Shown here one piece after another: positions 1 through 59,724 of a stretch of DNA of 64,000 bases (the stretch's first letter is position 1; every line of letters starts with the position of its first letter). A program made the translations under genes and the position numbers. The notes beneath the pieces were generated by a model. That model did not search any database and was not told the origin of the DNA. It was given only the letters and a program-made list of their open reading frames with translations. The stretch is taken from the NCBI GenBank assembly GCA_038087875.1, contig CM075995.1, positions 7,194,001 through 7,258,000 of the forward strand, given 5' to 3'. Origin of the DNA: Malacoraja senta (Eukaryota).

Positions 1-1367
1 TGTAAATTGTGTTGTGTCTTGGTTCTTTTCTTGTTGTATGACTGCAGAAACAGAATTTCGTTTGAACTTCATTTGAGGTCCAAATGATAATAAACGGTAT
101 TGTATTGTACTAGGGCCTTGTACAACTGCAGAAGGACCTCTTTGCTACAATACTCAACTCCTCTTGTTATGAAGGCCAACATGCCATTCGCTTTCTTCAC
201 TGCCTGCTGTACCTGCATGCTTACTTTCAGTGACTGATGAACAAGGACCCCCAGATCCCGTTGTTCCTCCACTTTTCCCAACGAGAGATTATAGTAATGT
301 TACTATCAAAGTAATGTTACTTTGAATCCCTTCATCTAAATCATTGACTGATGAATTAATTAATAGATGCCTAAAATTAATCAATTTATAGAACATAGAA
401 CAATGCAGAATGTGGAAACAAGGAACTGCAGATTAGTTTAGTTTATTGTCACGTGTACCGAGGTACAGTGAAAAGCTTTTGTTGCGTGCTATCCTGTCAG
501 CGGAAATACAATACTGATTACAATCGAGCCGTCCACCGTGTACAGATACATGATGAGGGAATGACGTTTACTGCAAGGCAAAGCCAGCAAAGTCCGATCA
601 AGGATAGTCCGTGGGTCACCAATGTGGTAGATAGTAGTTCAGGACCGCTCTCTGGTTGCGGTAGGATGGTTCAGTTGCCTGATAACAGCTGGGAAGAAAC
701 TGGTTGTGCTTTGTAATTTAAAAAAAGTTACAAAGTGCTGGAGTAACTCGGTGGGTCAGGCACCGGTTGCAGCCTGAAGAAAGGTCCCGATCCAAAACGT
801 CATCTATCCATGTTCTCCAAGGATGTTGCCTGACCCGCAGTGTGACTCCAGCGCCTGTGCCTTTTATCTTTTCATCGGTCAGTACAGCACAGGAACAGGC
901 CCTTCGGCCCACAATCTCCATGCAGACATTATGCCAAGGTAATTTAATCTCCTCTGCCTGCAAGTGATCCATATCCCTCCATTCCCTGCATATCCATGTG
1001 CCTATCCAAACGCCTCTTAAACGACACTATTGTATCTGCCATCACCACCACCCCTGGCAGTGTTCCAGGCACTCACCACCCTCTGTGTAAAAAAAAAAAT
1101 GCCCCACATATCTCTTTTAAATATTGCCACTCTCACCTAAAGTTATATCCTTTAGCCTTTGTCATTTCCATCCAAAGGTTCTGATTCTCTACCCTATCTA
1201 TACCTCTCATAATCTTCGATACTTCTTTCTCTCAGGTCTTCGCTTCAGCGTCCAATGCTCCAGATGAAACAATCCAAGTTTATTCGACCTCTTCTTGTAG
1301 CTTAAAAATCTCTAATCCAGGCCTCATCCAGTTTCCCTCCCCTCCCCCCCCCCCCCCCCCGACTCTC

Positions 1368-1402
1368 AGTCTGAAGAAGGGTCTCGACCCGAAACGTCAC
1401 CC
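1368..1402 (+). ncRNA. Putative minimal hammerhead ribozyme core
   Basis: CTGAAGA-A-GGGTC(TC)GACCC-GAAACGTC is intact; stem I is only ~2 bp (GT/AC). Confidence 0.5.
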
Positions 1403-1508
1403 ATTCTTTCTCTCCAGAGATGCTGCCTGTCCCGCTGAGTTACTCCAGCTTTTTGTGACTAAATTAAATGAAAATCCATAACACCGTCTGTTCATTCTCT
1501 CCAGAAAG

Positions 1509-2165: not shown

Positions 2166-2935
2166 CGTGCCTCTCCAAACCTCCACATCCTCTCTGCATT
2201 GGGGCGACCAGGACTGCACACAATAGTCCAAATGCAGCCTAACCAAAGTTCAATACTGTGTAAGAAGCAACTGCAGATGCTGGGTTAAACCGAAGATGGA
2301 CACGAAAAAGCTGGTGTCACTCAGCGGGACAGGCAGCATCTCTGGAGAGAAGGAATGGGTGACGTTTCGGGTCGAGATCCTTCTTCAGAGACGTCACCCA
2401 TTCCTTCTCTCCAGAGATGCTGCCTGTCCCGCTGAGATACTCCAGCATTTTGTGTCTATCCAAAGTTTTAATACTGCTGTATTATTATAATTTAAAATCG
2501 TGGCTCTGTCTGAAATCTATTTTGAATCTACCTCTTGCAGCTCTCGGCAATCTCCTTATGCCCTTCCATTCCCTTTCCTTTCCAATACCTAATCCGCTTT
2601 TAGATCAGTATTATTTTCCGAGAATGCTCCCAGGAATGAGTGGGTTAACATATGATGAGCGTTTGTCGGCACTGGGCCTGTACTCGCTGGAGTTTAGAAG
2701 GATGAGGTGGGGACCTCATTGAAACTTACCGAGTAGTGAAAGGCTTGGATAGAGTGGATGTGGAGAGGATGTTTCCACTGGTGGGAGAATCTAGGACCAG
2801 AGGTCACAGCCTCAGAATGAAAGGATGTACCTTTAGAAAGGAGATGAGGAGGAATTTCTTTAGTCAGAGGGTGGTGAGTCTGTGGAATTCTTTGCCACAG
2901 AAGGCTGTGGAGGCCACGTCAATGGATATTTTTAA

Positions 2936-4530: not shown

Positions 4531-6884
4531 CCAGCGTGTGTGCAGGGATCGCTGGTCGATGCGGACCTGGTGGACCGAAGGGCCTGTTTCAGCTCTGTAT
4601 CTCTGAGCTAAACTGAGCTTTGTGTCTGAGACTCCCCAGTGTTCATGCGTTCAGAAGGTACATGTGGCTCACAGCGTGTGTAAACCCACTTTATTTTCAC
4701 TCTGCATTCGGAGGGATCTCACGTTTAGTTTTGTTTAGAGATACAGCGCGGAAACAGGTCCTTCGGCCCACCGAGTCTGCACCGACCAGTGATCCCCGCA
4801 CGCTAACACTTCTTCCTCTTGTGGAGTCCACACACAAGACTAGGAGTTGTTCGGCCAGAGCTGAACACACTTCTCAGCATCTGCATACAATGGTGTCTGT
4901 CTTGTCGCTCCTTGTGCCTGGCGGTGGTGGTGGAAACAGGACCGCGACGTGAACGCTCTTTCCTTGACCCCGCACTAACACCACCCTACGCACACTAGGG
5001 ACAATTTACATTTACACCAAGCCAATTAACCTACCAACCTGGAGCGTGGGAGGAAACTGAAGATCTCGCGAGAAAACCCACGCGGGTCACGGGGAGAAGG
5101 TGCAATCTCTGCACCGACAGGCACCCATAGTCAGGATGGAACCCGGGTCTCCGGCGCTGTGAGGCAGCAACTCTACCGCTGCGCCACCGTGCCATTGACG
5201 TTGGGTAACTTAATCCTGTGCTTTGCCAATATTGAGATGTTGCACTTTCTGGGAACAAAAATAGCCTTTGAGTTAAAAGGTTGTGGGTGATCCTGTTGGA
5301 CCTAATCCTTTGGCTGGTATTCCTAAAAGTGAGTGTCCATTGTATAAGAGGCCATGTCGGGCCTGAAGTAATGGAGAATTTCCTTGCATGCTTATCAATA
5401 GACGATAGGTACAGGAGTAGGCTATTTGGCCCTTCTAGCCAGCACCGCCATTCAATGTGATCATGGCGTTATCATTAGTTTAGCTTGGTTTGGAGATACA
5501 GCGCGGAAACAGGCCCTTCGGCCCACCCGAGTCCACGCCAACCAACGATCTCACATACACTAGTTCATAAGTGATAGGGGCAGAATCAGGCCATTCGGCC
5601 CATCAAGTCTACTCCACCATTCAATCATGGCTGATCTATCTCTCCCTCTTGACCCCATTCTCCTGCCTTCTCCCCACTAACCCCTGACGCCCGTACCAAT
5701 CGAGAATCTATCTACCTCTGCCTTTAAAATATCCATCGACTAGGCCTCCACATCCTTCTGTGGCAAAGAATTCCACAGATTCACCAACCTCATCTTCCTA
5801 AAGGAATGTCCTTTAATTCTGAGGCTTTTCACTATTTGGTCAATTTCAATGAGGATTCCCCCCCCCGCCCCCATCCTTCTAATCTCCAGCGAGCCCATTG
5901 CCGTCAAATACTCATCACACGTTAACCCAACACTAGTTCTATCCTACGCACTCGGAACAATTTGCAGAAGCCATTTCTGAATTTGCAGCCGATTTACAGA
6001 AGCCAAACCTACAAACCCTGCACGTCTTTGGGGTATGAGGGTGAAACTGAAGCACCAGTCAGGGTGCCAGGCGGTATGAGTTGTTCTCCCCGTGACCTGC
6101 GTGGGTTTTCTCCGAGATCTTCGGGTTCCTCCCACACTCCAAAGAGGTGCAGGTATGCAGGTTAATTGGCTGGATGCATGTGCAAATTGTCCCTCGGGTA
6201 GTGTTGGTGTGCGGGGATCGCTGGTCGGCGCAGACTCGGTGGGTCGAATGGGTTCACAAGTTTAATTCCCGGGATGGCGGGACTGTCATATGCTGAGAGG
6301 ATGGAGCGGCTGGGCTTGTACACTCTGGGGTTTAGAAGGATGAGAGGGAATCTTATCGAAACATATACGATTATTAAGGGTTTGGACACGCTAGAGGCAG
6401 GAAACATGTTCCCGATGTTGGGGGAGTCCAGAACCAGGGGCCACAGTTTAAGAATAAGGGGTAAGCCATTTAGAACGTAGATAAGGATTCAAGATTCAAG
6501 AGAGTTTATTGTCATGTGTCCCTGATAGGACAATGAAATTCCTGCTTTGCTTCAGCACAACAGAACATAGTCGGCATAAATACAGAACAGATCAGTGTGT
6601 CCATACACCAAAGGAAACACTTTTTCACACAATGAGTTGTGAGTCTGTGGAATTTTCTGCCTCAGAGGGCGGTGGAGGCCGGTTCTCTGGATACTTTCAA
6701 GAAGGAGCTAGATAGGGCTCTTAAAGATAACGGAGTCTGGGGATATGGGAAGAAGGCAGGAACGGGGTACTGATTGTGGATGATCAGCCATGATCACATT
6801 GAATGGCGTTGCTGGCTCAAAGGGCCGAATGGCCTAATCCTGCACCTATTGCCTATTGTTTCCGCGTTGTACCTCTAAACTAAG

Positions 6885-6991: not shown

Positions 6992-7436
6992 ATGGAGGCC
7001 GAGTCTAAGACTGCCGCCCCTGAGGCCGTGCGGCTGAAGAAGGACATCTCCCTGCTGCACGGGGTGTGCCTGATCGTGGGCAACATGATCGGATCCGGGA
7101 TCTTTGTCTCCCCCAAGGGCGTGCTGAGGTTCACCGGCTCCTACGGCCTGTCCCTGATCATCTGGGCGGTGGGAGGAATATTCTCCGTCATTGGGGCGCT
7201 GTGTTACGCCGAGCTGGGGACCACCATCAAGAAGTCCGGGGCCAGCTACTCCTACATCTTGGCGTCGTTCGGGGGCTTCCTGGCCTTCCTGCGCCTCTGG
7301 ACGTCCATGCTCATCGTGGAGCCGGCCTGCCAAGCCGTCATCGCCATCACCTTTGCCAACTACCTCATCCAGCCCTTCTTCCCTTCCTGCGAGCCGCCAT
7401 ATAGCGCCGTGCGGCTTCTGGCTGCCTTCTGTATAG
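6992..7436 (+). CDS. SLC7A7: First coding exon of a y+L amino acid transporter light chain (SLC7/LAT family; y+LAT1-like), N-terminus through TM3 to the start of TM4
   Basis: Translation [31 protein letters not shown]...[18 protein letters not shown]...[10 protein letters not shown]...FPSCEPPY...RLLAAFCI has the LAT TM1 GSG motif and the Cys for the heavy-chain disulfide (C133, 7388-7390). [17 protein letters not shown] and FLAF..LWTS fit SLC7A7 better than SLC7A6. There is an in-frame stop upstream (TGA 6938-6940) and a phase-1 donor G|GTGAGA at 7436/7437. The symbol is less certain than the family. Confidence 0.88.
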
Positions 7437-7464: not shown

Positions 7465-7861
7465 CAAAGATCCGACAGCGGAGCAAGATAGACCACTCCT
7501 GCTAAATGCAATGGGCTGACGTGTAGTGCGGAACATGGGCCTTTTTTTCATCCATTTCCGTAACCCGACCCGACCCGACTCGCAGTGTAATCAACGTTGC
7601 GGGGGAACAGTTTGTGATAATAAATTAAAATTCTGAAAATGAGGAGAAGATTTTTACCAAATAACTTTTATTTATACGCGGATGTTTCCGTAACCGGCTT
7701 CCGTCTCCGCACTAGTCATCTTTGCTCCGCTGTGATGGGATCTTTGGTGCGGAGACGGAAGCCGGTTACGGAATGGGGCCGAAAATTACCTATGAATCTG
7801 CCCATGACCGTACTACGTCTTTTTCGTCGAGTGGTCTATCTTGCTCGCTATAGGATCTTTG
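7465..7861. mobile_element. hAT-type MITE (non-autonomous DNA transposon)
   Basis: ~33-bp TIRs CAAAGATCC..AGCG(G)AGCAAGATAGACCACTC (7465-7498 / 7829-7861) and a perfect 8-bp TSD ATAGTAAG (7457-7464, 7862-7869). Confidence 0.85.
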
Positions 7862-8277: not shown

Positions 8278-9827
8278 GACAGTAGGTGCAGGAGTAGGCC
8301 ATTCGGCCCTTTGAGCCAGCACCGCCATTCAATGTGTTCGTGGCTGAAATCAGTATCCCGTTCCTGCTTTTTCCCCATATCCCTTGATTCCTTTAGTCCT
8401 AAGAGCTAAATCTAACTCTCTCTTGAATACATCCAGTGAATTGACCCTCGACTGCCTTCTGTGGCAGAGAATTCCACCGATTCAATAGACAATAGGTGCA
8501 GTAGGCCATTCGGCCCTTCAAGCCAGCACCGCCATTCAATGTGATCATACCCGATCATCCACAATCAGTACCCCGTTCCTGCCTTCTCCCCATATCCCCC
8601 GACTCCGCTATCTTTAAGAGCCCTATCTAGCTCTCTCTTGGAAAGTATCCAGAGAACCGGCCTCCACCGCGCTCTGAGGCAGAGAATTCCACAGTCTCAC
8701 AACTCTCTGGCTGAAAACGTTTTTCCTCATCTCCGTCCTAAATGGCTTATCCCTTATTAAACTACCGCTTAAATAACAGTTCAACTGCAGGCGAAGTGTG
8801 CAGGAAATAACTGCAGAGGCTGGTCTAAACTGAAGATAGGCACAAGGTGCTGGAGTAACTCAGCGGGCCAGAGAGCATCTCCGGGGAAAAGGAATAGTTG
8901 ACGTTCGGGTCGAGACCCTTCTTCAGACTGAGAGTCAGGGGAGAGGGAAATGAGGGATATCGAGGGTGATGCAGCGAGATATAGAACAAATGTACCAAAG
9001 ATAGACACATAGTCCTGGAGTAACTCAGCAGGCCAGGCAGCATCTCTGGCTGCCTACTGTACAGGTGAGGGAGAGAAACACTGGCCCGTACACTGTGCTA
9101 AGCGCTCAACTCCATAGTTATAGCCAGAATGCTGGTTGGATTGAGGGGTGAGATTCCCTTATCATGTATCCACACAGTAAATGGCTCGATTGTAATCGTG
9201 TCTTGTCTCCCCACTGCGACGGAAGCTTTTCACTGTACTTTGGTACACGTGGCAGCTTTGACAGTCCGGAGTCGCCTTCCACAGGGAAGTGATTCGAAGA
9301 GTTTGTGGCCAGGATGAGAGGGGTCAGAGATGATCTTGCCCGCTCGCTTCCTGGCCCTTGCAGTGTACAGTTCATCAATGGAGGGAAGGTTGCAGACAGT
9401 AGGTGCAGGAGTAGGCCATTCGGCCCTTTGAGCCAGCACCGCCATTCAATGTGTTCATGGCTGATCATCCAAAATCAGTAAACTCAACTAAACTCAACTG
9501 ATCAAAAGGAAACTGCAGATGCAGGTTTACACCAAAGATAGACACAAAGTGCTGGAGTAACTCAGCGGGTCAGGCAGCACACCTGGAGAAACTGGTTATG
9601 TGACGATTCGGGCCAGAATCACTCCTTCGAGGGTGTGATATTCATGTTAGACAATAGACAATAGGTGCAGGAGCAGGCCATTCGGCCCTTCGAGCCAGCA
9701 CCGCCATTCAATGTGATCATGGCTGATCATTCCCAATCAGTACCCCGTTCCTGCCTTCTCCCCATATCCCCTGACTCCGCTGTTTTTAAGAGCCCTATCT
9801 AGCTCTCTCTTGAGAACCTGCCTCCAC

Positions 9828-12800
9828 ATCTCAAGATGGCGGCGCACACAGTTGCAGCAGCTCAATGTTCTCCCGGTCGGTGCTTCGTGTCTTTGTGTGC
9901 GCGTTGTCTGTTGTCCTGTGTACTTGCTGTCGGGCGGACAACGTCTACGGCCAGCATGATCTCCTTAGGATTGGAGCTGGTCGCGAGCGGAGTGTGACAG
10001 CCGAGTTTGTCCGTTCACACAAGATCCCGGTGGACATAGCGAGGAGCCCCGGCTCTCCGTGGATCACCATCCCAGCGGGGAGGAGGCGAAGGTGGCGCAG
10101 AGAGCGCTAGCCAGGCTGCGGAGGCAGCCACTCAAACCACCGCTTCCCAGCCTGTTTCTCACCAACGCCAGATCCCTCGCTAACAAGATGGATGAACTGA
10201 GGCTACAAACTGCAGCTAACAACGCCGTGAAGGACAGCTTCATTCTGTTGATCACGGAGACATGGCTTCGTTCACTCATTCCGGACTCTGCTATCGAGCT
10301 GGCAGGCTACACCGCACAGCGTCATGACAGGACAAGAGACTCTGGTAAGAGCAGAGGAGGAGGAGGGCTCTGTGTGTACGTGAACAACAACTGGTGTACT
10401 AACACAGTGATTGTAGACAGTCACTGCTCCCCGGACCTGGAGTATGTGACTGTTAAATGCAGGCCCATTTATCTCCCTAGAGAGTTTACTGTCGTCATGA
10501 TAACTGTGATATACATACCACCGGATGCTAATGCGAACTCGGCTATCGGACAATTGTATGGTAGCACTAGCAGCCATCAGAGCACATATCCTGACGCTGT
10601 TCACATCATAGCAGGGGACTTTAATCACGCGGACTTGAAGGCAATGCCCCCCAAATTCTATCAGCATGTTAAATGTGCTACAAGAGGAGCTAACACATTG
10701 GACAAGGTCTACTCCAACATCAAGCTGGGCTACAGGGCTAGACCACTACCACACCTGGGCCAGTCTGACCATATGTCCCTGCTTTTAATTCCTGCATATG
10801 CCCCCCCCTCAGGGAAAACTGCTCCTACCATCACAAAGACCATCACAACTTGGCCTGATGGTGCCTCTCAGCAGCTGCAGGACTGCTTCGACAGGACCAA
10901 CTGGGATGTGTTTGAACACCAGGACCTGGAGGTGTTCACAGACAGTGTACTATGTTACATTAAAAACTGCATGGACACTGTCACAGTGGACAAACGCATC
11001 CGGGTCTACCCCAACCAGAAGCCCTGGATGACCCGGGAGGTCCAGCGGCTGTTAAAAGAGAGGAACACCGTTTTTAGGTCTGGCGATAGGGCTTTATACA
11101 GCACGGCCCGAGCTAACCTGAAGAGAGGCATCAGAGAGGCCAAATCAGACTACAGGCGGAGGATAGAGGACCACCTGGACAGTAACAACAGCAGGCAGGT
11201 GTGGCAGGGGATCCAGTATCTCACCAACTACAAGACCAACCTTGGAGCTGCTGAAGGTGACGCCTCGTTGGCAGAGGAGCTGAACCTCTTCTTTGCTCGC
11301 TTTGAAGTGGAGCCACCAGAGACAGCCATATCACACCACATGGCCAACAGCAGCTTATCCCTCAAAATAGAGGAGCATGAGGTGAGGCGCACGCTGCGGG
11401 CCATCAATCCGAGGAAGGCTGCTGGACCCGACGGCGTTTCTGGACGCGTGCTGAAGGACTGCGCAGACCAGCTGGCTGGAGTCTTTACGAGGATTTTCAA
11501 CCAGTCTCTGGCCCAGTCCACTGTCCCATCCTGTCTGAAGTCCTCCACCATAGTCCCCTTGCCCCAAAAAACCCACATTTCCAGCCTCAACGACTACCGG
11601 CCAGTCGCACTCACACCAGTGGTGATGAAGTGCTTTTATAAAACTGGTCCGGGGTCACATCAAATCACTCCTGCCCCGAAGCTTTGACCCCCACCAGTTT
11701 GCGTATAGAGCGAATAGATCCACAGAGGATGCTGTAGCCACAGCCCTCCATGCTGCACTGTCCCACCTGGAGCAGCGGGGGAGCTACGTGCGGATGCTCT
11801 TTGTGGACTACAGCTCTGCTTTTAACACCATCCTTCCCCACAAACTGGTGGACAAACTGGGGGACCTGGGACTTCCACACTCCACCTGCATGTGGATAAA
11901 GAGCTTCCTGTCGGGTCGCAGTCAGAGAGTCCGAGTGGGCCGTCACACATCCACGGCCCTCAGCCTCAGTACCGGCTCTCCACAGGGCTGCGTGCTGAGC
12001 CCCCTGCTTTACACCATCTACACATATGACTGCACCCCCGCCCACCACAGTAACACCATTGTCAAATTCGCGGATGACACCACGGTGGTGGGGCTCATCT
12101 CTGGGGGGGGATGAGTACGCCTACAGGGATGAGGTGGAGCAGCTGACAGGGTGGTGTGGAGAGAATAACCTGCTCCTCAACACCTCAAAGACCAAGGAGC
12201 TCATAATAGATTACAGGAAGAAGAAAACGGACATTACACCACTAATCATCGATGGGGACTGTGTGGAAAGGGTGGCGGATTTCCGCTTCCTGGGAATCCA
12301 CATTGAGGAGGACCTGACTTGGAGCGTGAACACCTCTGCGCTGCTGAAAAAAGTCCAGCAGAGACTGTACTTCCTGAGGGTGCTCGGGAAGAACAACATC
12401 ACCCAGAGACTGCTGCTATCCTTTTATCGATGCTCAATTGAGAGCATCTTAACATACTGTGTATGCGTGTGGTACACCAGCTGCACAGCGGCTAAGAGGA
12501 AAGCGCTCCAGAGGGCTATTGACAATGCCCAGAAGATTATCGGCTGCCCTCTCCTCACCTTGGAGGACCTACACAGTTCCCACTGTCTCAAAAAATCCCA
12601 GAACATCATAAAGGACATTTTCCACCCCGGACACTCCCTGTTTGAACTGTTGCCGTCAGGCAGACGGTACAGAGCAATGAGGACAAGGACAAACAGACTC
12701 AAAAACAGTTTTTATCCCACAGCAATAACTACACGTAATGTAGCCACCAAATGAGTACAGGTGTGCTACACACCAAAGGGACTGGGAAATCGACAGAAGA

Positions 12801-12921: not shown

Positions 12922-14879
12922 CCTCCACCGCCCTCTGAGGCAGAGAATTCCACAGACTCACCGCTCTCTGTGAGAAAAAGTGTTTCCTCGTCTCCGTTCT
13001 AAATGGCTTACTCCTTATTCTTAAACTGTGTGTGGCCCCTGGTTCTGGACTCCCCCAACATCGGGAACATGTTTCCTGCCTCTAGCGTGTCCAAGCCCTT
13101 AACAATCTTATATGTTTCAATGAGATACCCTCTCATCCTTCTAAACTCCAGAGTGTACAAGCCCATTTGAAATGTTGAAAGCTTAGATTGGACAGCCCTA
13201 GAAAAGGAACATGGCTAGCCATCGCATATTGATTGCAGTTGGAGTCTTGGAGTGATACAGCGTGGAAACAGGCCCTTCGGCCCAACTTGCCCACAGCAGC
13301 CAACATGCCCCAGCTCCACTAGGCCCACCTGCCTGCGTTTGGTCCATAAACCTGTCCCATCCATCTACCTGTTCAAATGTTTCTTAGACGTTCTGATAGT
13401 CCCTGCCTCAACTACCTCCTCTGGCAGCTCGTTCCATACACCCACCAATCTTTGCGTGAAAAAGTTACCCCTCCGGTTTCTATTAAATCTCCATCTTAAA
13501 ACTCTGTCCTCTGGTTCTTGATTCCCCTACTCGAGGCAAGAGACTCTCTATGTGTTAACCTGATCTATTTATCTCATGGTGTTGTCCACCTCTATAGGAT
13601 CACACCTCATCCTCCTGCGCTCCAAGGAGTAGAGTCCTAGCCCGCTCAACCTCTCCCTAGAGCTCATGCCCTCGAGTCCTGGCAACATCCTCGTAAAATT
13701 ATTTATTTAGAGAGGAAGGAAAAACATTATTATGATTATAATGAGCGCCCACAGCATCGTTTCCTCTGGGGTTTGGTACGTCTTGAGGGCTCCGTATCTT
13801 AATGCTCCTAAAGGCTCCTTATCTCCATACGAGAATGATCCCAGGAATGAGTGGGTTAACCTATGAAGAGCGTTTGACAGCACTGGGCTTGTACTCGCTG
13901 GGGTTTAGAAGAATGAGGGGGGGGACGACCTCATTGAAACATACAGAATAGTGAAAGGCCTGGATAGAGCGGACGTGGAGAGGATGTTTCCACCAGCGGG
14001 AGAGTCCAGGACCAGAGGGCACAGCCTCAGAATAAAAGGGCGTTTCTTTAGAAAGGAGATCTTACGTTCATGAGTCATAGGAGCAGAATTAGGCCATTCG
14101 GCCCATCGAGTCTACTCCGCCATTCAATCATGGCTGGTCTATCTCTCCCTCCTAACCCCATTGTCCTGACTTCCCCCCGTAACCCCTGACACCCGCACTA
14201 ATCAACCTTGGTCATCATGGATGAGTTTGCCATGTTTCTGTGCTGTATCGCAGTGTGACTCTGTCAGAGAAATATCATGTTGAGCATGATTAATCCCACC
14301 AATCATTAACTCATCCCATTAAAAAGCAAGAAGCCCTGGCAATTAACAAAAACTGAACATTTCTGGAAATAATCTGTCCGTAACCATAAATCCTGCAAAA
14401 GGAGAAGTCAAGTCAGGTTTATTCGTCACATACACATACGAGATGTGCAGTGAAACGGAAAAGTGGCAATGCTCGCGGGCTGTGCAAAAAACAAACAAAC
14501 TACAAACAGAATGGAACAGAATCACATATTCACATGTTTGTGGGAGGGAGGGAAGAAAAAGGAAAAAAAACTGCGATTTTAAAAAGATACCACACAACAG
14601 TAAACTGGTTCAGTAAAGTTAGTCCCTGGAGAGATAGGAGTTTACAGTCCGAATGGCCTCTGGGAAGAAACTCCTTCTCAACCTCTCCGTTCACACAGCG
14701 TGGCAACGGAGGCGTTTGCCTGACCGTAGCAGCTGGAACAGAAAGCAAGTTCGCTGTGTTTAAATCTCGTTATTAGTATCGGTTTATTATTATCACGTGT
14801 ACTTCAAGTAACTTTAAAGTGAGGGGGGCAAAGTTTAAAGTGTGGGGGTAGGTTTTTTTTTTGCGAAGAGGGTCGGGAG

Positions 14880-15160
14880 CAGCTGGGACAGGCTGCTGGG
14901 ACGGGCTGCTGGAAGGAGCTGCTGGAACGCGTTGCTGGTTTGAGCTGCTGGAACGCGTTGCTGGAACGCATTGCTGGTTTGAGCTGCTGGTTTGAGCTGC
15001 TGGAAGGAGCTGCTGGAACGCGTTGCTGGTTTGAGCTGCTGGAAGGAGCTGCTGGAACGCGTTGCTGGTTTGAGCTGCTGGGACGGGCTGCTGGTTCTAG
15101 CTGCTGGGACGGGCTGCTGGTTCTAGCTGCTGGAACGGGCTGCTGGAACGTACTGCTGGG
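14880..15160. repeat. GCTGCTGG-based minisatellite (~39-bp units) inside a CR1 fragment
   Basis: Repeats of GCTGCTGGAACGCGTTGCTGGTTTGAGCTGCTGGAAGGA. Confidence 0.85.
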
Positions 15161-16274: not shown

Positions 16275-16387
16275 TGTAAACGCAGTGAGGCAGCAACCCT
16301 GGCTTTGAGCCACCGTGCCGCCCCAGTGCTGGAGTTACTCAGCGGGTCAGGCAGCCTCTCTGGAGAAAAAGGACGGGTGACTTTTCG

Positions 16388-16423
16388 GGGTCTGAAGAAG
16401 GGTCCCGACCCGAAACGTCACCC
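16388..16423 (+). ncRNA. Putative minimal type I hammerhead ribozyme (Penelope-associated)
   Basis: GGGT-CTGAAGA-A-GGGTC(CC)GACCC-GAA-ACGT-C^ACCC: stem I GGGT/ACCC, stem II GGGTC/GACCC, palindromic ACGT stem III, and a GUC cleavage triplet. Confidence 0.6.
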
Positions 16424-17048
16424 ATCCTTTTCCTCCAGAGACGCCGCCTGACCCGCTGAGTTACTCCAGCACTTTGTGTCTATCTTTGGTATAAACCGGC
16501 ATCTGCAGTTCTTTGCAAGGAATATGGGTTACGTGGATCATATCCCGATGTTGGGGGAGTCCAGAACCAGGGGCCACACAGTTTAAGAATAAGGAGTAAG
16601 CCATTTAGAACGGAGACGAGGAAACACTTTTTCTCACAGAGAGTGGTGAGTCTGTGGAATTCTCTGCCTCAGAGGGCGGTGGAGGGAGGTTCTCTGGATG
16701 CTTTTTAAGAGAGAGCTAGATAGGGTTCTTAAAGATAGCGGAGTCAGGGTATATGGGGAGAAGGCAGGAACGGGGTAGTGATTGGGGATGATCAGCCATG
16801 ATCACATTGAATGGCGGTGCTGGCTCGAAGGGCCAAATGGCCTACTCCTGCACCTATTGTCTATTGTCTATTATCTATATCCGGCACAGGCTTTGTGGGC
16901 TGAAGGGCTGAACTTGCTCTGTACTATTTTATGTTCTACAGTGACAACATTTTTGCGTTGCATGTGATCCAGGCAAATCATGCTTTGTGGCGTAGAGGAT
17001 AAAGTACTCGGGGTGCAGAATGCCTTGTCACAGCTACAGAGAATAGAG

Positions 17049-19790: not shown

Positions 19791-20270
19791 CCAGTTGAGA
19801 GGAAAAGATAGATCAGCCACGATTGAATGGACTGGACGGGCCGAATGGCCCCGATTCTTGCTCCTGGAACGCACGAACATGAGTAGGAAGGGTCTCGACC
19901 CGTAACGTCACCCATTCCTTCTCTCCATGGATGCTGCCTGTCCCGCTGAGTTGCTCCAGTGTTTTGTGCCAATCTTGTGAACCGTTCTCTGGATACATGG
20001 AGGAGTTTGAAGGAATACATTCCCTGACTGTTGTGGAAATGGACACTGGGAGACAGTCAGCAGTTCATTGGGGCAACTGGTCAGGTTAAATTCATGCATC
20101 AGCACCGATTATAAATAAAATGGTTCTCTGTTACTCAGTAGGACTCTGTTTTGGAGAGCAGTCAATTTGTTTGCATTGAATTGATGGCCGAGCATGGGTG
20201 GGGAGGGGGAGAGATGGGGGAGGGAAGCAACATCCCTTTCATAAATTTATATGTCATAGCAGCAGAATTA

Positions 20271-24967: not shown

Positions 24968-26667
24968 CAGTGCCCTCCATAATGTTTGGGACAAAAGACC
25001 CATCATTTATTTATTAGCCTCTGTACTCCACAATTTGAGATTTGCAATAGAAAAAAAATCACATGTGGTTAAAGTGCACGTTGTCAGATTTTAATAAAGG
25101 CCATTTTTATACATTTTGGTTTCACCATGTAGAAATTAAAGCAGTGTTTATACATAGTCCCCCCCCCCCCTCCGCCGTTTCAGGGCACCATAATGTTTGG
25201 GACACAGCAATGTCATGTAAATGAAAGTAGTCATGTTTAGTTTTTTTTTGCATATCCTTCGCATGCAATGACTGCTTGAAGTCTGCGATTCATGGACATC
25301 ACCAGTTGCCGGGTGTCTTCTCTGGTGATCCTCTGCCAGGCCTGTATTGCAACCATCTTTAGCTTATGCTTGTTTTGGGGGGCTAGTCCCCTTCAGTTTT
25401 CTCTTCAGCATATAAAAGCAGGCATGAGATTTCTCCGCGGATTTTGAAATTCGGTTAAAAAAAAAATCTAACTCTCCACTATAAATGGCTTTCCACGATT
25501 TTAGCGGAAAGCGTGTACGTGGGGTGCGAGCCGACTGTCTTTGCGTGCGCATCTCTACAGCAAGCGCTCAGCATATGTGGAGTAGCGGTTTTCTTCTGTC
25601 CCTTAGGCCTGCGTACTGGTGTTGGGGCGGGGAGCACAGAGTTACATACGCGTACACAACGCTCACACTGTACGTACGGCCCTGGTACGTACGTGCGCTC
25701 TCCATCCAACCAGACTCTGCGGAGCTGACAGTACAAAATGTATAAGCGTGTATACGTATGTTCAATATGACTTAAGTGTAAACAAGCCAGGAGTTGGTGC
25801 CATTTTAAGATATGATTATCACAAATTTCTGAGTAAATTAAGAAGTGACAAGCAAATAAAATGTGTTATATTAAGGTACAATTTAAAAAAAATTACAGTA
25901 TAAATTGGGTTCAGATTGGGTGATTGGCCACTCAAGAATTGACCATTTTTTAGCTTTGAAAAACTCCTTTGTTGCTTTAGCAGTAGGTTTTGGATCATTG
26001 TCTTGCTGTAAAATGAACCGCTGGCCAATGAGTTTGGAGGCATTTGTTTGAACTTGAGCAGATAGGATGTATCTATACACTTCAGAATTCATTATGCTAC
26101 TACCATCAGTATTTGTATCATCATGAAGATAAGTGAGCCAGTACCTTCAGCAGCCATACATGCCCAGCCATAACACCCCCACACCGTGTTTCACAGATGA
26201 GGTGGTATGTTTTGGATCTTGGGCAGTTCCTTCTCTCCTCCATATTTTGCTCGTGCCATCACTCTGATATGTTAATCTTCGTCTCATCTGTCCACAAGAC
26301 CTTTTTCCAGAACTGTGGTTGCTCTTTTAAGTACTTCTTGGCAAACTGTAACCGGGCCATCCTATTTTTGCAGCTAACCAGTAGTTTGCATCTTTCAGTG
26401 TAGCCTCTGTATTTCTGTTCATGAAGTCTTCTGCAGACAGTGGTCATTGACAAATCCACACCTGACTCCTGAAGAGTGTTTCTGATCAGTCGGACATGTG
26501 TTTGGGGATTTTTCTTTGTTATAGAGAGAATTCTTCTGTCATCAGCTGTGGAGGTCTTCTTGGCCTGCCAGTCCCTTTGCGATTAATAAGCTCACCAGTG
26601 CTCTCTTCTTCTTAATGATGTTCCAAACCAGTTGGTTTTGGTAAAGCCTAAGGTTTGGCTGATGTCT
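24968..26667 (-). mobile_element. Tc1-family DNA transposon (IR/DR type) with decayed DD34E transposase; other end lost in the gap
   Basis: The terminus is CAGTG, with direct repeats CCATAATGTTTGGGACA at 24977-24993 and 25188-25204. Minus-strand translation shows KVLWTDETKIN, QQDNDPK, EWP, NLNPI and MLKRKLKG. Several frameshifts and an internal insertion are present. Confidence 0.92.
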
Positions 26668-26867
26668 NNNNNNNNNNNNNNNNNNNNNNNNNNNNNNNNN
26701 NNNNNNNNNNNNNNNNNNNNNNNNNNNNNNNNNNNNNNNNNNNNNNNNNNNNNNNNNNNNNNNNNNNNNNNNNNNNNNNNNNNNNNNNNNNNNNNNNNNN
26801 NNNNNNNNNNNNNNNNNNNNNNNNNNNNNNNNNNNNNNNNNNNNNNNNNNNNNNNNNNNNNNNNNNN
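26668..26867. other. Assembly gap (200 N)
   Basis: Run of N; the fixed length suggests a scaffolding gap of unknown true size. Confidence 0.98.
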
Positions 26868-33425: not shown

Positions 33426-35160
33426 TAAGAGCTAAATCGAACTCCCTTGTGAATACATCTTAGAACATTTCAGAATCTTAGAACTTTAACAATCTTAGAA
33501 TCTAATCACAATTGGAAGCGGTGCATCGGAAACAACGAGGTCCCGCTTCATTTAACAGGTTGCCTTGCCGAGCTGCAGATAAGGCCAATTAGTGCGTCTG
33601 GCCTTGGAGTTGTTATTGAGCTCTTGTGGCTGGACCTTGTCGTGAGGCTGCTGGTGAGTCGCCAGCGGTAACAGCCTGAATGCAAAACCAACGTGGGCGT
33701 GAAGGCTCCCACACGTGTATCGAGGTACAGTGACTAGCTTTTGCAAACCAGCCAGCGGGAAGACAATGCACGATTACAATCGAGCCATTCGCAGTGTACG
33801 GGCACACGAGAAAGGGAATGACGTTTGCCGCGAGCGAAAGCCAGGAAGGTCCGATCAAAGTAAACCTATGTGTGAGACAAAGGGGTTGAAGAGTTGCCAA
33901 TTGTGAAGCCAGAGGAAGGAATGTGGGTGGAAGGGGAGGGGAGAAATAACTGGGAGTCTAGGTGGGGCAGAGGGGAGAGGGTGCGGTGGTAGATGGGAGG
34001 TCCTTTCAACAATCTGGTAACAAATGGGGCCGGAGGTCATAGCTTCGGAGAGAGCTAGATAGGGCTCTTAAAGATAGCGGAGTCAGGGATATGGGGAGAA
34101 GGCAGGAACGGGGTACTGATTGGGGATGATCAGCCATGATCACATTGAATGGCGGTGCTGGCTCGAAGGGCCGAATGGCCTACTCCTGCACCTATTGTCT
34201 ATTGTCTATTGTAAAGGACGTTCTTTTAGGAAGGAGATGAGGAGGAATTTCTTTAGTCAGAGGGTGGTGAATCTGTGTAATTCTTTGCCACTGAAGGCTG
34301 TGGAGGCCAAGTCAATTGATATAGATAGATTCTTGATTAGTACAATGGATATCTCCAAGTCAATGGAGATAGATAGATTCTTGATTAGTACGGGTGTCAG
34401 GGGTTACGGGGAGAAGGCAGGAGAATGGGGTGAGGTGGGTGAGATAGATCAGCCGTGATTGAACGGCGGAGTAGACATGACGGGCCGAATGGCCTAATTC
34501 TGCTCCTATCACTTATGATCTTATGGGGCGGCACGGTGGTGTAGCGGTAGAGTTGCTGCCTCACAGCGCCAGAAAACCCTGCTGCGATCCTGACTACGGG
34601 TGCTGTCTGCGCGGAGTTTGTACGTTCTCCCCGTGACCTGCGTGGGTTTTCTCCGAGATCTTCGGTTTCCTCCAACGCTCCTAAGACGTGCAGGTTTGTA
34701 GGTTAATTGGCTTCGGTAAAGCCATAAGGTCCGAGGAGGTGGATAGTAGGTTCAGCGGGGCATGCAATACTCCAAATGCAGCCACACCAAAGTCCTATAG
34801 AGCTTTGTGTCGGAAGGAACTGCAGATGCTGGTTTAAATCGAAGGTAGACACAAAATGCTGGAGTAACTCAGCGGGACAGGCTGCATCTCTGGAGAGAAG
34901 GAATGGGTGACGTTTCGGGTCGAGACCAGACTGGTGATTCAGACTTCAGACTCATATAGAGCTTCCATTGATCAACTAATCAAAGCTAATCCAGTGTGAA
35001 ATATTATCTTCAATGGACTTGGTGTTCAGTGTGTTTAATAATTCCATAGATATCAAAGCCGTGAGATGTGTTCAGAATGGGCTGCTGATGAAATGAGAGC
35101 AAGGAATTCATAAGGACCAGACTTTGTAGGGTTTGGGGAACCAGTCGCAAGGATATGAGT

Positions 35161-37652: not shown

Positions 37653-38315
37653 ATTGATAGGTTGTGTAGGAAGGAACTGCAGATGCTGGTTTAAACCGAA
37701 GATAGACACAAAATGCCGGTGTAACTCAGCGGGACAAACAGCTTCTCTGGAGAGAAGGAATGGGTAACGTTTCGGGTTGAGATCCGTCTGAAGAAGGGAC
37801 TCGACCCGAAACGTCGCCCATTCCTGCTCTCCAGTGATGCTGCCTGTCCCGCTGAGTTACACCAGCATTTTGTGTCTATCTTCGGAGATTGATAGGTTCT
37901 TGACTAAAGCGCAGGAGGATGAGGGGTGATCTTTCAGAGGTGTATAAAATCATGAGAGGAATAGATCGGGTAGAGTCTCTTGCCCAGAGTAGAGGGAATC
38001 AAGAACCTGAGGAGATAGGTTTAAGGTGAGAGGGGAAAAGATTCAATAGGAACCTGAGGGCTAACTTTTTCACACAAATGGTGGTGGGTGTATGGAATGA
38101 GCTGCCGGAGGAGGTAGTTGAGACTTTGTGCATCTAACTTTGTGTCCTTTTGTGGCCTAATTCTGCTCCTCTGTCTTATGATCCCATGATATTCAGTGTG
38201 GTAAATTCCTTAAAGGAACAGGCATTTGCCCAGCGAAGAGAGCAACTAATCATAATCATACTATATTAGCCAAGTATATTTTGCAACATAACAAGAATTT
38301 CACTTGCCACACAGT

Positions 38316-41442: not shown

Positions 41443-41538
41443 CCTGGCTTTGGTATAAACCAGCATCTGCAGTTCCTTGTTATTACATGGAAAGAATAAA
41501 GTTGGATTAGATTGGCCTAGAAAAAAAAGACACAAACT

Positions 41539-41814
41539 GCTGGAGTAACTCAGCGGGTCAGGCAACATCTGTGGAGAACATGGATAGGTGACGTTTCACA
41601 GAGTGCTGGAGTAACTCAGCGGGTCAGGCAGCATCTGTGGAGAACAGGGATAGGTGACGTTTCACAGAGTGCTGGAGTAACTTAGCGGGTCAGGCAGCAT
41701 CCGTGGAGAACATGGATAGGTGACGTTTCACAGAGTGCTGGAGTAACTCAGCGGGTCAGGCAGCATCTGTGGAGAACATGGATAGGTGACGTTTTGGGTC
41801 GGGCCCTTCTTCAG
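41539..41814 (-). repeat. 66-bp tandem array (4 units) of the Penelope-like repeat arm
   Basis: Units start at 41539, 41605, 41671 and 41737; the strand is given relative to the hammerhead-sense orientation. Confidence 0.9.
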
Positions 41815-42072
41815 ATTGATAGATTGAAGAGTGTAGATTGGTATAGGTTGGTAGTTGGCATGGTCTCGGTGGGCCGAAGGGCCTGTTTCCACCCTGTATT
41901 TATCAATGACTCACTGCTTTAGGTCCAGCTTTGGTTAAGTCCGTTTGCAAATAGACCAGGTAACTGAGAGTGAATGATTCACATGCGAGATATTAATGCT
42001 TCCATGGTTTCTTCGTTATCACCTGTACCCGGGTGGAGTGAAATACTTTTTTTGCATTCAGTACAGCAAGAC

Positions 42073-46545: not shown

Positions 46546-47862
46546 GTGTACAGTTTTGTAGGTTCATTGCTTCGGTATAATTGTAAACCAGTGTGTGTGG
46601 GATAGCATTAGTGTACGGGGTGATCGCTGGTCGGTGTGGACTTGTTGGGCTGAAGGGCCTGTTCTCGCGTGGTATGTCTCGAGTCTAAAGGCATCCATTT
46701 TAAATATGTCGTATCCATGAACCAGATTTTAGGTATTTCCCACCACAGGTTTAGGTCGACCAGCGATGTAATGCTGAGGCCCTACAAGGCGCTGGGCAGG
46801 CCACATTTGGAGTATTGTGAGCATCTTTGGGGCCTATATCTGAGGAAGGATGTGTTGGCTCTGGAGAGGGTCCAGAGGAGGTTTACGAGAATTGATCCCA
46901 ATGATCCAGGGGAAGAAAGGTGTCGACCCGAAAAAGTGACCCCAGCAGGAGGGAAGAAAGGTCTCGACCCAAAACGTCACCCGTTCCTTCTCTCCATAGA
47001 TGCTGCCTCACCTGCAGAGTTACTCCAGCATTTTTTGTCTACCAGTGATGAGTGGGTTAACACACGATGAGCGTTTGACGGCACTGGGCCTGTACTCGCT
47101 GGAGTTTAGAAGGATGAAGGGTAGGGGGGGGGGGGGAACCTCAATGAAACATACAGAATAGTGAAAGGCCTGGATAGAGTGGATGCGGAGAGGATATTTC
47201 CTCTAGGACCAGAGGCCACAGCCTCAGAATTAAAGGACGTGCCTGTAGAAAGGAGATGAGAAGGAATTTCTTTCGTCAGAGGGCGGTGAATCTGTGGAAT
47301 TCATTGCCACAGACGGCGGTGGAGGCCAAATCAATGGGCGTTTTTAAGGCAGAGATTGATTAGTACCAGTGTCAGGGGTTATGGGAAGAAGGCAGGAGAA
47401 TGGGGTTAGGAGGGAGCGCTATATCAGCCATGATAGAATGGCGGAGTAGACTTGATGGGCCGAATGGCCTAATTCTGCTCCTCTCAGTTCTGAACATGAC
47501 AACTTGCTGTTCGAGTGACCCTGGTCTTGAACTTGTCCGTTCGCATGAAGAAACTGAGCCAGCATTCACTATTAATCATTGTTTACAGCTGCTGACTGAC
47601 GCGTTTGCTTGCCAAAGTCTATCCATTCAGCATTTTACCCTTTTTTGGGCATTTTGGGCCCAATAGGGAGATGGCAGGAGAATGGGGTTTGGAGGGAGAG
47701 ATAGATCAGCCACGATAGAATGGCAGAGCAGCCTCGATGGGCCGAATGGCCTTATTCTGCTCCGATCACTTCTGGAAACAGTCACAATTCCCACGTGGCA
47801 GATGATAACATTATAGATAGATGGTTAAAAGAATGAAAAGTATAAAACTAGATCCCCCTGTG

Positions 47863-49087: not shown

Positions 49088-49816
49088 CAATAGACAATAG
49101 ACAATAGGTACAGGAGTAGGCCATTCGGCCCTTCGAGCCCGCACCGCCATTCAATGTGATCATGGCTGATCATCCCCAATCAGTACCCCGTTCCTGCCTT
49201 CTCCCCATATCCCCTGACTCCGCTATTTTTAAGAGCCCTATCTAGCTCTCTCTTGAAAGCATCCAGAGAAACCTGCCTCCACGCGCCTCTGAGGCAGAGA
49301 ATTCCACAGACTCACCACTCTCTGTGAGAAAATTCTTTTTGTGGAATTCCCTGCCACAGAGGGCAGTGGAGGCCAAATCACTGGATGGATTTAAGAGAGA
49401 GTTAGATAGAGCTCTGAGGGTCAGTGGAATCAAGGATATGGGAGAAGGCAGGCACGGGTTATTGATTGGGGACGATCAGCCGTGATCACAATGAATGGCG
49501 GTGCTGGATCGAAGGGCTGATTGGCCTCCTCCTGCACCTATTTTCTATGTTTCTATGTAAAAAGTTCTAAATGGCTTACCCCTTAATCTTAAACTGTGGC
49601 CCCTGGTTCTGAACTTCCCCAACATCGGGAACATGTCTCCTGCCTCTAGCGTGTCCAAACCCTTAACAATCTTATATGTTTCAATAAGATATCCTCTCAT
49701 CCTTCTAAACTCCAGAGAGTACAAGCCCAGCCGCTCTATTCTCTCAGCATATGACAGTCCCGCCATCCCGGGAATTACCCTTGTAAACCTACGCTGCACT
49801 CCCTCAATAGCAAGAA
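49088..49816 (-). mobile_element. Minus-strand CR1 with an opposite-orientation CR1 3' end nested at ~49336-49558
   Basis: The reverse CR1 is interrupted after CTCTGTGAGAAAA and resumes at GTTCTAAATGG. Confidence 0.8.
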
Positions 49817-50007
49817 TATTCCTACTGCGCTCCAAGCAATAAAGTCCTAGCCTGTCCAACCGCTCCCTATAGCTCAGGCCCTCGAGTCCTGGCAACATCC
49901 TCGTAATTCCTCTCTGCACTCTTCGCAGCGTGACAACTTCCGCCCTGCAGCAGGGCGACCAAACTGAACACAGTACCCCAAATATTCCGAAGAGGGGTCC
50001 CAACCTG

Positions 50008-50279
50008 AAACGTCACCTATCCATGTTCTTCTCCACAGATGCTGCCTGACCCGCTGAGTTACTCCAGCACTCTGTGAAACCTCACCTATCCATGTTCTCC
50101 ACAGATGCTGCCTGACCCGCTGAGTTACTCCAGCACTCTGTGAAACGTCACCTATCCACGTTCTCCACAGATGCTGCCTGACCCGCTGAGTTACTCCAGC
50201 ACTCTGTGAAACGTCACCTATCCATGTTCTCCAGAGATGCTGCCTGACCCGCTGAGTACTCCAGCACTCTGTGAAACGT
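50008..50279 (+). repeat. 66-bp tandem array (~4 units), inverted counterpart of 41539-41814
   Basis: Unit GAAACGTCACCTATCCATGTTCTCCACAGATGCTGCCTGACCCGCTGAGTTACTCCAGCACTCTGT. Confidence 0.9.
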
Positions 50280-55043: not shown

Positions 55044-55259
55044 TAATCTTCTCTGCAACCCTTTCCGGGTTGACAACACCAATCCAGCTAGGCGACAGTT
55101 GTGATCGACGCAGAAAGCTGGAGTAACTCAGCGGGACAGGCAGCACCTCTGGAGAGAAGGAATGGGTGACGTTTTGGGTCAGGGACCCTTCCTCAGAGAT
55201 GACGAGATGCCGCCCGCCACGCTGAGTTCCTCCAGCAATTTGTGACCGTCATCAGTGTA

Positions 55260-57400: not shown

Positions 57401-59209
57401 AAACAGGCCCTTCAGCCCAACCTGCCCACGCCGGCCAACATGCCCCAGCCTTGCCCACGTTTGGTCCATATCCTTCCAAATGTACCTTTCCAAGTCATCG
57501 CGTGATACAGTGTGGAAACAGGCCCTTTGGCCCAACATGTCCCAGCTAATGTTTCATGTGTCATTCCTAACTGCCACTGTATGTCATGTTGTCACTTGCG
57601 GGCGGAGCACCGAGGCAAATTCCTTGTATGTGAATACTTGGCCAATAAACTTATTCATTCATTCATACATTCACTAGTCCTACCTGCCAGCATTTGGTCC
57701 ATAGCCCTCCAAACCTGTTCTATCCATGTACCTGTCTAACTGCTTCTTAAATGTTGGGGTAGTCCCAGCCTCAACTACCTCCTCTGGCAGCTCGTTCCAT
57801 ACACCCACCACCCTTTGTGTGTGAGCAAAAAGTTACCCCTCAGATTCCTATTAATCCCTCACCTTAAACCTATGTCCTCTGGTCCTCGATTCCCCTACTC
57901 TGGGCAAGAGACTCTGTGCGTCGTCTATTCCTCCCGTGATTTTTGCACACCCCTATAAGATCACCCCCTCGTCCTCCTGCGCTCCAATGGGACAGAGGCC
58001 CAGCCCGCTCAAACCTCTCCCTGCAGCTCAGGCCCTCGAGTCCTGGCAAACCTCCTCGTTGAAAAAGAGTGCCGGAGCTGTGCCTGTGTGAGTCGGCACC
58101 ACCTCCAAGAATGGGGAGGTTTCGAATCGAGTCATCGGGATATTTCGGGTGTTCGAGCTTGCAAATTAATTCTGCATCAGATCCTTTCTAATTTTAGCCC
58201 TCGCCGTGAGCGGCAGGGCCCAGGAGTTGTAAGCTCGTCAGCCTCCATAAAAATCACATTGGAAATATACGGGAAGGAGTTTCCTTGACAAAAGTGTTGG
58301 CAGTGTTAAGCATTTGCACGGGTGAAATGTTCCAAGCCATAGATTATTTTTTTGTAGTGCTACAGTGTCACGGGATCAACCGCCCCGAATTTCCTTCATC
58401 CGTTTTGTTTTTATCTCGAGAGTAGATTTTTTTTTTTTTTGGAGTCCTTGGTGTCGTGAGTTCAAACAGTTAGCGTCGGAAGCCTCAAAGCATCGCCGCC
58501 TGTGTAGATTGAGTGGAACGTCTGTGGACGGGTAAGGTACAGTCCAATGCAGACTTGTGGAGTAATCTTGTCTTAACAATCTAACAGGTTGCAGGGACTA
58601 GCCAGCCACTGGACGCCGCAGTTGTGAATCTGTGGAATTTCTCTGCCACTGAAGGCAGTGGAGGCCAATCCACTGGATGTTTTCAAGAGAGAGTTAGACT
58701 TATCTCTTACGGCTGACGGAATCAAGGGATATGGGACAAAAGGGACAGAAGTTTAGGGGCAACATGAGGGGGGAACTTCTTTACTCAGAGAGTGGTAGCT
58801 GTGTGGAATGAGCTTCCAGTGGAAGTGGCGGAGGCAGGTTCGTTTTTATCATTTAAAAATAAATTGGATAGGTATATGGACGGGAAAGGGATGGAGGGTT
58901 ATGGTCTGAGTGCAGGTAGATGGGGACTAGGTGAGAGGAAGTGTTCGGCACGGACTAGAAGGCCGAGATGGCCTGTTTCCGTGCTGTAATTGTTATATGG
59001 TTATATGGTTATATGGGGAGAAAGCTAGGAAAGGTTACTGATTGTGGATGATCAGGCATGATCATATTGAACGCAGGCTCGAAGGGCCGGATAGCCTACT
59101 CCTGCAGCTATTTTCTATGTTTCTATGTTTCACAGCCTTGATGTAATATTTTTTTAATTCACTGCTCTGATCTTGTGGATAGATGCATCTTATAAGTTTC
59201 ATTATTACA

Positions 59210-59478: not shown

Positions 59479-59724
59479 ATCCCAACTTAGTCATAGAGTC
59501 ATACAGTGTTGAAACAGGCCCTTCGGCCCAACTTGCCCTCACCGACCAACATGTCCCATCACACATGTCCCACCTGCCTGCGTTTGACCCATATCTCTTT
59601 AAACCTGTCCTATCCATGTACCTGTCTAATTGCTTCTTAAACGTTGCGATAGTCCCTGTCTCAACAACCTCCTCCGGCAGCTCGTTCCATACACCCACCA
59701 CCCTTTGTGTTTAAGAAGTTAGTA

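Follow-up and report, generated by a model that had tools for sequence, protein, structure and literature searches.

Minimal hammerhead-like motifs in a dispersed skate repeat, probably derived from the terminal repeat of a Penelope-like element

Introduction

A short motif resembling the core of the hammerhead ribozyme recurs along a 64,000-nucleotide stretch of Malacoraja senta DNA (hereafter, the window), and the copy at position 16388 lies downstream of a coding exon of an amino acid transporter gene, on the same strand. This locus raises the question of which element carries the motif, and whether copies of this kind could cut the transcript in which they lie. A preliminary description of the window had proposed a high-copy family of minimal hammerheads borne by a Penelope-like element (PLE) in a chondrichthyan, with several copies able to cleave the host pre-mRNA in cis or, as dimers, in trans. 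The results presented here suggest that the first part of this proposal is probably correct and that the second is very improbable.

Hammerhead-like motifs and the published consensus

We searched the window with the pattern CTGANGA-N5-25-GAAACGT and detected six occurrences; in 100 shuffles, the pattern occurred 0.03 times on average and never more than once. Five lie on the forward strand (1371, 16392, 37788, 55344 and 59348), each where the preliminary description had placed one, and the sixth lies on the reverse strand (2362–2388). Of the three reverse-strand copies described earlier, the one at 2362–2388 proved to have an intact core, while that at 8900–8926 lacks one A of GAAA, and that at 41788–41814 is present but carries G12A and has lost 1 nt from helix II. 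Decayed copies were recovered at all the places named for them, near 774, 19887, 46953–46963 and 49987. A stricter descriptor with pairing checks was passed by four copies and gave no hit in 100 Markov simulations.

The six copies carry the core CUGANGA/GAAA/NUH in type I order, and the window motif fits, at every core position, the metazoan PLE consensus set out in PMC4209133: a U-rich stretch, helix I, CUGANGAH, helix II opening with a G-C pair, and GAAA-N-palindrome-N-UH. This position-by-position match bears out the minimal type I architecture proposed for the motif. The extra A after CUGAAGA (A16399) had been suspected of inactivating the copies; however, PLE minimal hammerheads have a conserved nucleotide that separates position 9 from 10.1 (Cervera and De la Pena 2014, PMC4209133), and the extra A is therefore diagnostic and no defect.

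Across 13 aligned rows, the pair following the extra nucleotide (G16400–C16411 in the 16388 copy) was G-C in ten, G-U in two and unpaired in one, and the palindrome ACGT, which is without a helix III loop, was invariant (13/13). G-to-A decay in this palindrome affected 6–21% of family reads or depth in relatives. Helix II was paired in 92% of cells, its fourth pair being U-A in seven rows and C-G in four. Because the four C-G rows came from one assembly and were found with a pattern fixing the other three pairs, this compensatory change counts as one event. In a pair-shuffle control, the observed pairing was reached in 6 of 500 shuffles and the number of covarying pairs in 333 of 500, which gives modest support to the hammerhead pairing. 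Helix I is 2 bp long (GU/AC) in the family and 0–1 bp in four of nine copies; the published range is 2–6 bp, mostly at least 3. When 15 copies from the window were folded jointly with RNAalifold, the hammerhead was not among the structures obtained, and two-sided change was seen in one of ten predicted pairs.

Viral and metagenome contigs contained no instance of the exact 30-nt pattern, and prokaryote genomes none of a looser motif pattern. With a looser pattern, four contigs (L001–L004) were retrieved from one other assembly; around the motif, they resemble the window over no more than 31–40 nt of the core, and their tails are unrelated. The conservation of the core in these contigs is circular, since the search pattern demanded it; all four have a C-G pair in helix II where the window has U-A, and three of the four have a 3-bp helix I, which the pattern did not demand. 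One of them, from a probably vertebrate assembly, contains the same head-to-head palindrome around a minimal hammerhead as is described below (L001:1046–1248, −126 kcal/mol). A phage-like contig (L005:891–950, reverse strand) carries, beside an ORF start, what looks like a canonical type I hammerhead, in which helix I is 6 bp long and helix III is extended. The Rfam hammerhead models matched neither the window copies nor L001–L005.

The copy at 16388 and its inverted repeat

The core of this copy (16392–16419, forward strand) was located by pattern, consensus and descriptor searches. It comprises C3–A9 (16392–16398), the extra A (16399), helix II (16400–16403/16408–16411), GAAA (16412–16415), the ACGT palindrome (16415–16418) and C17 (16419), with the would-be cut at 16419/16420. 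The forward repeat unit, likely a pseudo-LTR (pLTR) with a long tail, extends over 16390–16514 on the forward strand and begins 2 nt 5′ of C3. Joined to it head-to-head is an inverted, 5′-truncated second copy (16325–16389, reverse strand), which pairs with 16404–16473. The resulting 150-nt inverted repeat (16325–16473) encloses the 16388 copy and is predicted to fold as a single hairpin of −112.8 kcal/mol (z −13.4). No target duplication was detectable at this insertion.

The preliminary description had credited the 16388 copy with a 4-bp stem I. The pairing GGGT/ACCC (16388–16391/16420–16423) does exist, but GGGT is the tip of the inverted arm (16325–16389), which is predicted to sequester the core; the pairing is thus no mark of a better copy. 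Forcing the hammerhead fold at this site is predicted to cost 15.7 kcal/mol, and the predicted probability of the closing pair of helix II was 0.0004 with the core just transcribed and 0.0001 later, over all transcript lengths tested. In these folding models, the 16388 copy is probably an inert transposition product, a head-to-head insertion predicted to bury its own core; since it lies inside an inverted repeat predicted to block folding, the host RNA would probably be left uncut. As a warning, an inversion junction in a genomic copy can create the false appearance of helix I pairing.

Structure of the repeat and its copies in the window

The longest copy (59205–59482, forward strand), which has a pyrimidine-rich upstream part of ~140 nt, an intact core and a long tail, was compared with the window by BLAST. 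This gave 36 pieces at 25 places, and 22 loci after three pieces shorter than 30 nt were dropped. The claim of a high-copy dispersed family in a chondrichthyan, here a batoid, was supported. The core was intact in 6 of the 15 aligned copies that reach it, and G12 was replaced by A, at a CpG, in 4 of the 15. The repeat is ~95 or ~135 bp long, beginning just 5′ of C3 and ending at approximately +87 to +98 or +123 to +134.

Single-armed, 3′-anchored and 5′-truncated copies make up 17 of the 22 loci, and pyrimidine tracts lie upstream of the unit in four copies. One such copy at 1357–1457 (forward strand) has an intact core and a 2-bp helix I; another at 8797–8967 (reverse strand) has a long tail and has lost one A of GAAA. 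The copies at 19887–19983 and 46953–47039 (both forward strand, the latter with G12A) are truncated within the core, that at 34806–34954 (reverse strand) combines a long tail and an interrupted core with a 13-nt flanking duplication, and a second-subfamily copy at 52403–52485 (reverse strand) is without the 5′ half of the core. At 55343–55433 (forward strand), a solo unit of ~91 bp with an intact core ending in GTT and an exact 11-nt duplication (TTTTCACACAG) lies inside another repeat, which we take to be of the CR1 type.

Head-to-head palindromes were found at 5 of the 22 loci, with inverted arms beginning at +5, +17, +20, +46 and +55 and arm lengths unequal within a palindrome. The palindrome at 2257–2456 (reverse strand) has an intact core with a damaged helix II, a tail at one end and a 12-nt flanking duplication, and that at 37660–37885 (forward strand) has an intact but buried core, a tail on the inverted arm and a 14-nt flanking duplication. 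A palindromic copy at 55107–55267 (reverse strand) and a decayed copy with a short inverted arm at 730–852 (forward strand) both carry G12A. The optional tail of ~40 nt was confined to a single arm in all three long palindromes. Flanking target duplications, varying in length from 11 to 14 nt with at most one mismatch, accompanied 4 of 12 insertions, compared with 1.2% of random pairs.

Two loci contain tandem arrays of one subfamily. At 41526–41822 (reverse strand), one hammerhead unit with G12A is followed by 66-bp tandem units, each beginning at the GAAACGTC half of the core, and a second 66-bp array with U4C in the core lies at 49986–50279 (forward strand). The arrays proper, at 41531–41794 (reverse strand) and 50006–50279 (forward strand), are independent and consist of four 66-bp units each. 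In both, a single 5′ core half precedes repeats that start at GAAACGTC, a layout of one enzyme strand with several substrate strands, and both lead cores are mutated (G12A and U4C, respectively).

Published accounts of endonuclease-bearing PLEs (Penelope/Poseidon and Neptune; PMC8557442, PMC3846280, PMC11167929) describe the same structural hallmarks, namely an inverted 5′-truncated 5′ copy, an optional tail of 30–40 bp at one end, target duplications, partial tandems, solo pLTRs and AT-rich targets; the optional tail has been explained by two reverse-transcription start sites (PMC11167929). In contrast to those elements, the unit here is very short and begins at the hammerhead, and no ORF was seen. 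A Pfam search of 149 of the 155 ORFs near the copies gave two sub-cutoff matches, neither of them to RT or GIY-YIG, and protein searches with two repeat translations gave nothing, or two spurious domain-less ORFs. For the Penelope-like origin proposed earlier, the structural hallmarks thus provide support, while the link to an RT/GIY-YIG ORF was not found. The identity of the parent element is therefore drawn from structure, and its clade is not assignable.

Judged from the motif and the structure of its insertions, this high-copy minimal hammerhead family most probably derives from the terminal repeat (pLTR plus optional tail) of an endonuclease-bearing PLE of skates and rays. According to the mechanism that we propose, the PLE protein would nick AT-rich DNA, and reverse transcription would begin at either of two sites, which lie ~95 and 135 nt within the repeat, and would usually halt at or before the first hammerhead bases. 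A second, shorter cDNA would often be joined head-to-head, giving the palindrome, the one-end tail and the target duplication. Cleavage would require two motifs pairing via ACGU, probably with the element's protein, and would therefore be relevant only in the tandem transcript of the parent element, while scattered intronic copies would decay neutrally.

The conservation of the core was compared with that of its flanks. Mismatches amounted to 9/156 in the whole core and 96/840 in the whole tail (p=0.033), a comparison in which the copies were partly chosen by their core, and to 8/90 in the less selection-biased 3′ half of the core, which did not differ from the tail (p=0.60). The core as a whole is therefore somewhat better conserved than the tail, but its 3′ half is not. 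Copies in the window look as if they decay neutrally, while the parent family would keep the motif. A hairpin block in the tail (16458–16473 and all copies), with a 4-bp stem and an 8-nt loop, was conserved like the core (12/285 mismatches, p=0.49 versus the core) and is a candidate protein-binding or priming signal.

The repeat in related genomes

Four public runs from relatives were placed on 59130–59490 at 82% likeness, with the 59205–59482 copy as the reference for the reads. Some break points in relatives are artefacts of private changes in this reference, and the loose ends at 59353 and 59409/10, and in part those at 59437 and 59343, were disregarded, being artefacts of changes specific to the reference or of differences between subfamilies. 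In two of the runs, 190,751 and 174,530 contigs were placed; contigs with unplaced flanks numbered 18,206 and 23,643, suggesting at least ~10^4 loci. Summed contig depth was not taken as a measure of copy number. Scaling six intact cores per 64 kb to a skate genome of 2.2 Gb (PMC10115646) gives ~2×10^5, which is probably an overestimate because the window is repeat-dense. By comparison, the published genome-wide numbers of minimal motifs are ~4,000 in the coelacanth and ~9,000 in Xenopus (PMC4209133), and 126,247 canonical hammerhead motifs are given for the axolotl (PMC7229834).

Among the matches listed, the loose ends with unrelated AT-rich flanks fell at 59345/6 on the 5′ side and, sharply, at 59479/80 on the 3′ side; inversion joints at 59345/6 were present in both DNA and RNA runs, and head-to-tail tandem joints of ~93 bp and 133–136 bp were detected. 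These whole-unit tandem joints were seen only in the relatives' contigs.

In a polyA RNA run of one relative, 14,088 of 7,335,232 reads mapped on the unit, in about equal numbers for both orientations. Of these, 95% extended into dissimilar sequence, and neither read starts nor read ends accumulated at any point, a pattern that fits read-through in host transcripts. As a check for ADAR editing, A>G and T>C changes were counted at 32 of 140 variant places in the RNA, compared with 13 of 77 in that organism's contigs, a margin too narrow to count for or against editing.

The 5′ boundary of the unit

For many copies, the 5′ end falls 1–3 nt ahead of C3. Nine of the 22 loci begin, by eye, within ~4 nt 5′ of C3 (BLAST starts at −1 to −11), and a rough binomial estimate for this clustering in a 3-nt window gave p values of 1e-8 to 5e-12. 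In the relatives, the top boundaries with unrelated flanks lie at −3/−2 (59345/6) and not at 59347, the head-to-tail joints return to 59345–7, and depth in related runs rises ~10-fold into the bin 59338–59350, partly through subfamily divergence. The boundary bases, at 59345–59347 and equivalent positions, resemble an initiator (Inr) and equally a 3′ splice site. In D. virilis, an intron ends just before the hammerhead (PMC4209133) and the Penelope promoter is internal (PMC2377424); Inr-like sequences and an internal promoter have been described for other pLTRs (PMC8557442, PMC3846280, PMC2377424). A putative transcript start is the favoured reading of the boundary at −3/−2, because the boundaries include the A or G of AG. 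Cleavage behind a CUC that immediately precedes the unit on its 5′ side was considered as the source of the boundary and rejected, as the CUC bases cannot pair as helix III with GAAACGU.

Among the points against a PLE pLTR are the sharp 5′ boundary, for which a defined transcript is a better match than truncation at random, the 2-bp helix I, which lies at the lower limit of published lengths, and the somewhat better conservation of the whole core than of the whole tail. An alternative, which we consider unlikely, is a free-standing non-autonomous mini-element, PLE-dependent and SINE- or retrozyme-like, whose 93/135-bp monomers, palindromes and tandems would be copied whole, with a transcript beginning at the initiator-like TCAGT 3 nt before C3 and tandems acting as double hammerheads. 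The shared start near C3, the ends, joints and depth rise in relatives, and the Inr-like sequences and internal promoter of other pLTRs would agree with such an element, as would the solo unit at 55343 with its exact duplication. However, the four copies that extend upstream into pyrimidine tracts indicate that longer templates exist, the depth step is partly divergence, the boundary bases also read as a splice site, 95% of the polyA reads run through the unit, in either orientation and without clustered starts, and the listed tandem joints had no reads in the RNA run.

A more far-reaching and doubtful proposal is that skates and rays carry a 'mini-Penelope' of ~95/135 nt that starts 2–3 nt before the core and is present in 10^4–10^5 copies or more, possibly the densest vertebrate family of hammerhead motifs per Mb; its head-to-head copies would be silenced in dsRNA, while head-to-tail tandems could act as double hammerheads. 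If this were true, the many precise junctions would make PLE 5′-end formation and twin priming directly testable. The abundance and the fixed 5′ boundary would give a rich natural data set on how the inverted ends and tails of PLEs are formed.

Cleavage of the SLC7A6-like transcript

The exon upstream of the 16388 copy (6992–7435, forward strand) encodes residues 1–148 of a y+L amino acid transporter 2-like (SLC7A6-like) protein, and its product shares 92% identity with a stingray protein, 90% with that of an electric ray and 86–88% with shark proteins, which points to a batoid host. No later SLC7A6-like exon was found within the window, and the copies beyond 7435 are therefore inferred to be intronic, the intron being longer than 56 kb. 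This inferred intron contains four intact cores in the sense orientation (16392, 37788, 55344 and 59348) and none in the antisense orientation; the numbers are small, and sense intact copies are not depleted. Thus, the claim that copies are sense to the SLC7 pre-mRNA was correct, but their cleavage in cis or as dimers in trans was not supported: predicted hairpins enclose the cores at 16392 and 37788, and those at 55344 and 59348 have a 2-bp helix I.

That these sense copies cut the pre-mRNA and affect its expression is, from the folding models, very improbable. The excised 36-mer of the 16388 copy alone is predicted to fold as a hammerhead (−9.5 kcal/mol), and family RNA is abundant in the relative's polyA run, both of which would favour cutting. 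On the other hand, in each of the nine copies tested, the MFE fold is predicted to surpass the hammerhead fold in stability by 7–33 kcal/mol. Dimers fare no better: the predicted double hammerhead of the 36-mer (−17.3 kcal/mol) loses to a competing dimer (−28.8 kcal/mol) by 11.5 kcal/mol, and that of the 1371 type is predicted to be 19 kcal/mol less stable than its competing dimer. Read ends did not pile up at the cleavage site in the polyA run of one relative, which is a weak test, since ends produced by cleavage may escape detection in a polyA library made from fragmented RNA. As to published activities, PLE minimal hammerheads are described as inactive as monomers and weak as dimers (PMC4209133), dimer cleavage of PLE hammerhead variants is attributed to Lunse et al. 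in a review (PMC6765202), eight of nine Xenopus dimers were inactive (bioRxiv 10.64898/2026.07.22.740005), and the anole PLE ribozyme is reported to cut only with protein, without RNA-seq ends at the site (PMC11167929). A new layer of host gene regulation is thus unlikely.

Comparison with known elements

By its motif, the family belongs with the PLE minimal hammerheads and, as far as sequence can tell, would work like them. Like the pLTR hammerheads of PMC4209133, it is of type I, with CUGANGA plus one nucleotide, G10.1–C11.1, GAAA-CG-UH without a helix III loop and a U-rich 5′ side, and occurs mostly as dispersed singles with some opposite-strand pairs; most minimal motifs described in that paper are also solo. 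Helix II is 4 bp and helix I 2 bp here, the latter length being given also for Drosophila virilis, Culex and Oikopleura (PMC4209133). No chondrichthyan is among the 56 motifs in Fig. S3 of that paper, whereas the present family is from skates and rays; PLE minimal hammerheads are thereby extended to batoids, which are absent from its alignment.

The family also resembles the non-LTR retrozymes (PMC7229834; bioRxiv 10.64898/2026.07.22.740005), which are likewise non-coding, pLTR-related and found in tandem forms, here as the 93/135-bp joints in relatives. In contrast to retrozymes, the 66-bp arrays of the window repeat only the GAAACGTC (3′) half of the core, tandems of complete hammerheads were not found in the window, and the motif is minimal, without the loop 1–loop 2 architecture of canonical retrozymes (PMC7229834). 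Retrozymes have been reported in one chondrichthyan genome (bioRxiv 10.64898/2026.07.22.740005), and PLEs are described as expanded in whale shark introns (bioRxiv 10.1101/443036). Our search of the literature and its supplements for Penelope and hammerhead ribozymes in sharks, skates and elasmobranchs found no description of the family, which may well be catalogued already, for example in Repbase, Dfam or the supplements of bioRxiv 10.64898/2026.07.22.740005.

The weakest alternative, in which the repeat is a MITE or some hairpin element of another kind, without relation to PLEs and with a coincidental hammerhead likeness, can draw on the long inverted repeats, the target duplications, the missing PLE ORF and the missing Rfam hammerhead match, but is most improbable given the single-armed, 3′-anchored and 5′-truncated majority of loci, the arms of different length within a palindrome, the variable duplications, the finding, in another assembly, of the same core and of paired helix II next to unrelated tails, and the chance expectation of 0.03.

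Other features of the window

The self-repeat fraction of the window is 66%. Two 200-N assembly gaps lie at 26668–26867 and 60785–60984. Further long hairpins at 7685–7774 and 49261–49386 gave sub-threshold miRNA matches; such matches, which are not meaningful, were all that Rfam returned for hairpins. A weak Rfam match to a CPEB3/HDV-like ribozyme (4938–4971, reverse strand) scored 23.5 bits, below the 35-bit threshold. A 13-bp minisatellite of ~22 copies occupies 14877–15159, a fragment of a Tc1-type transposase lies at 26262–26582 (reverse strand), and a near-complete, frameshifted LINE with endonuclease and RT domains extends over 9969–12751 on the forward strand, in the sense orientation of the transporter gene.
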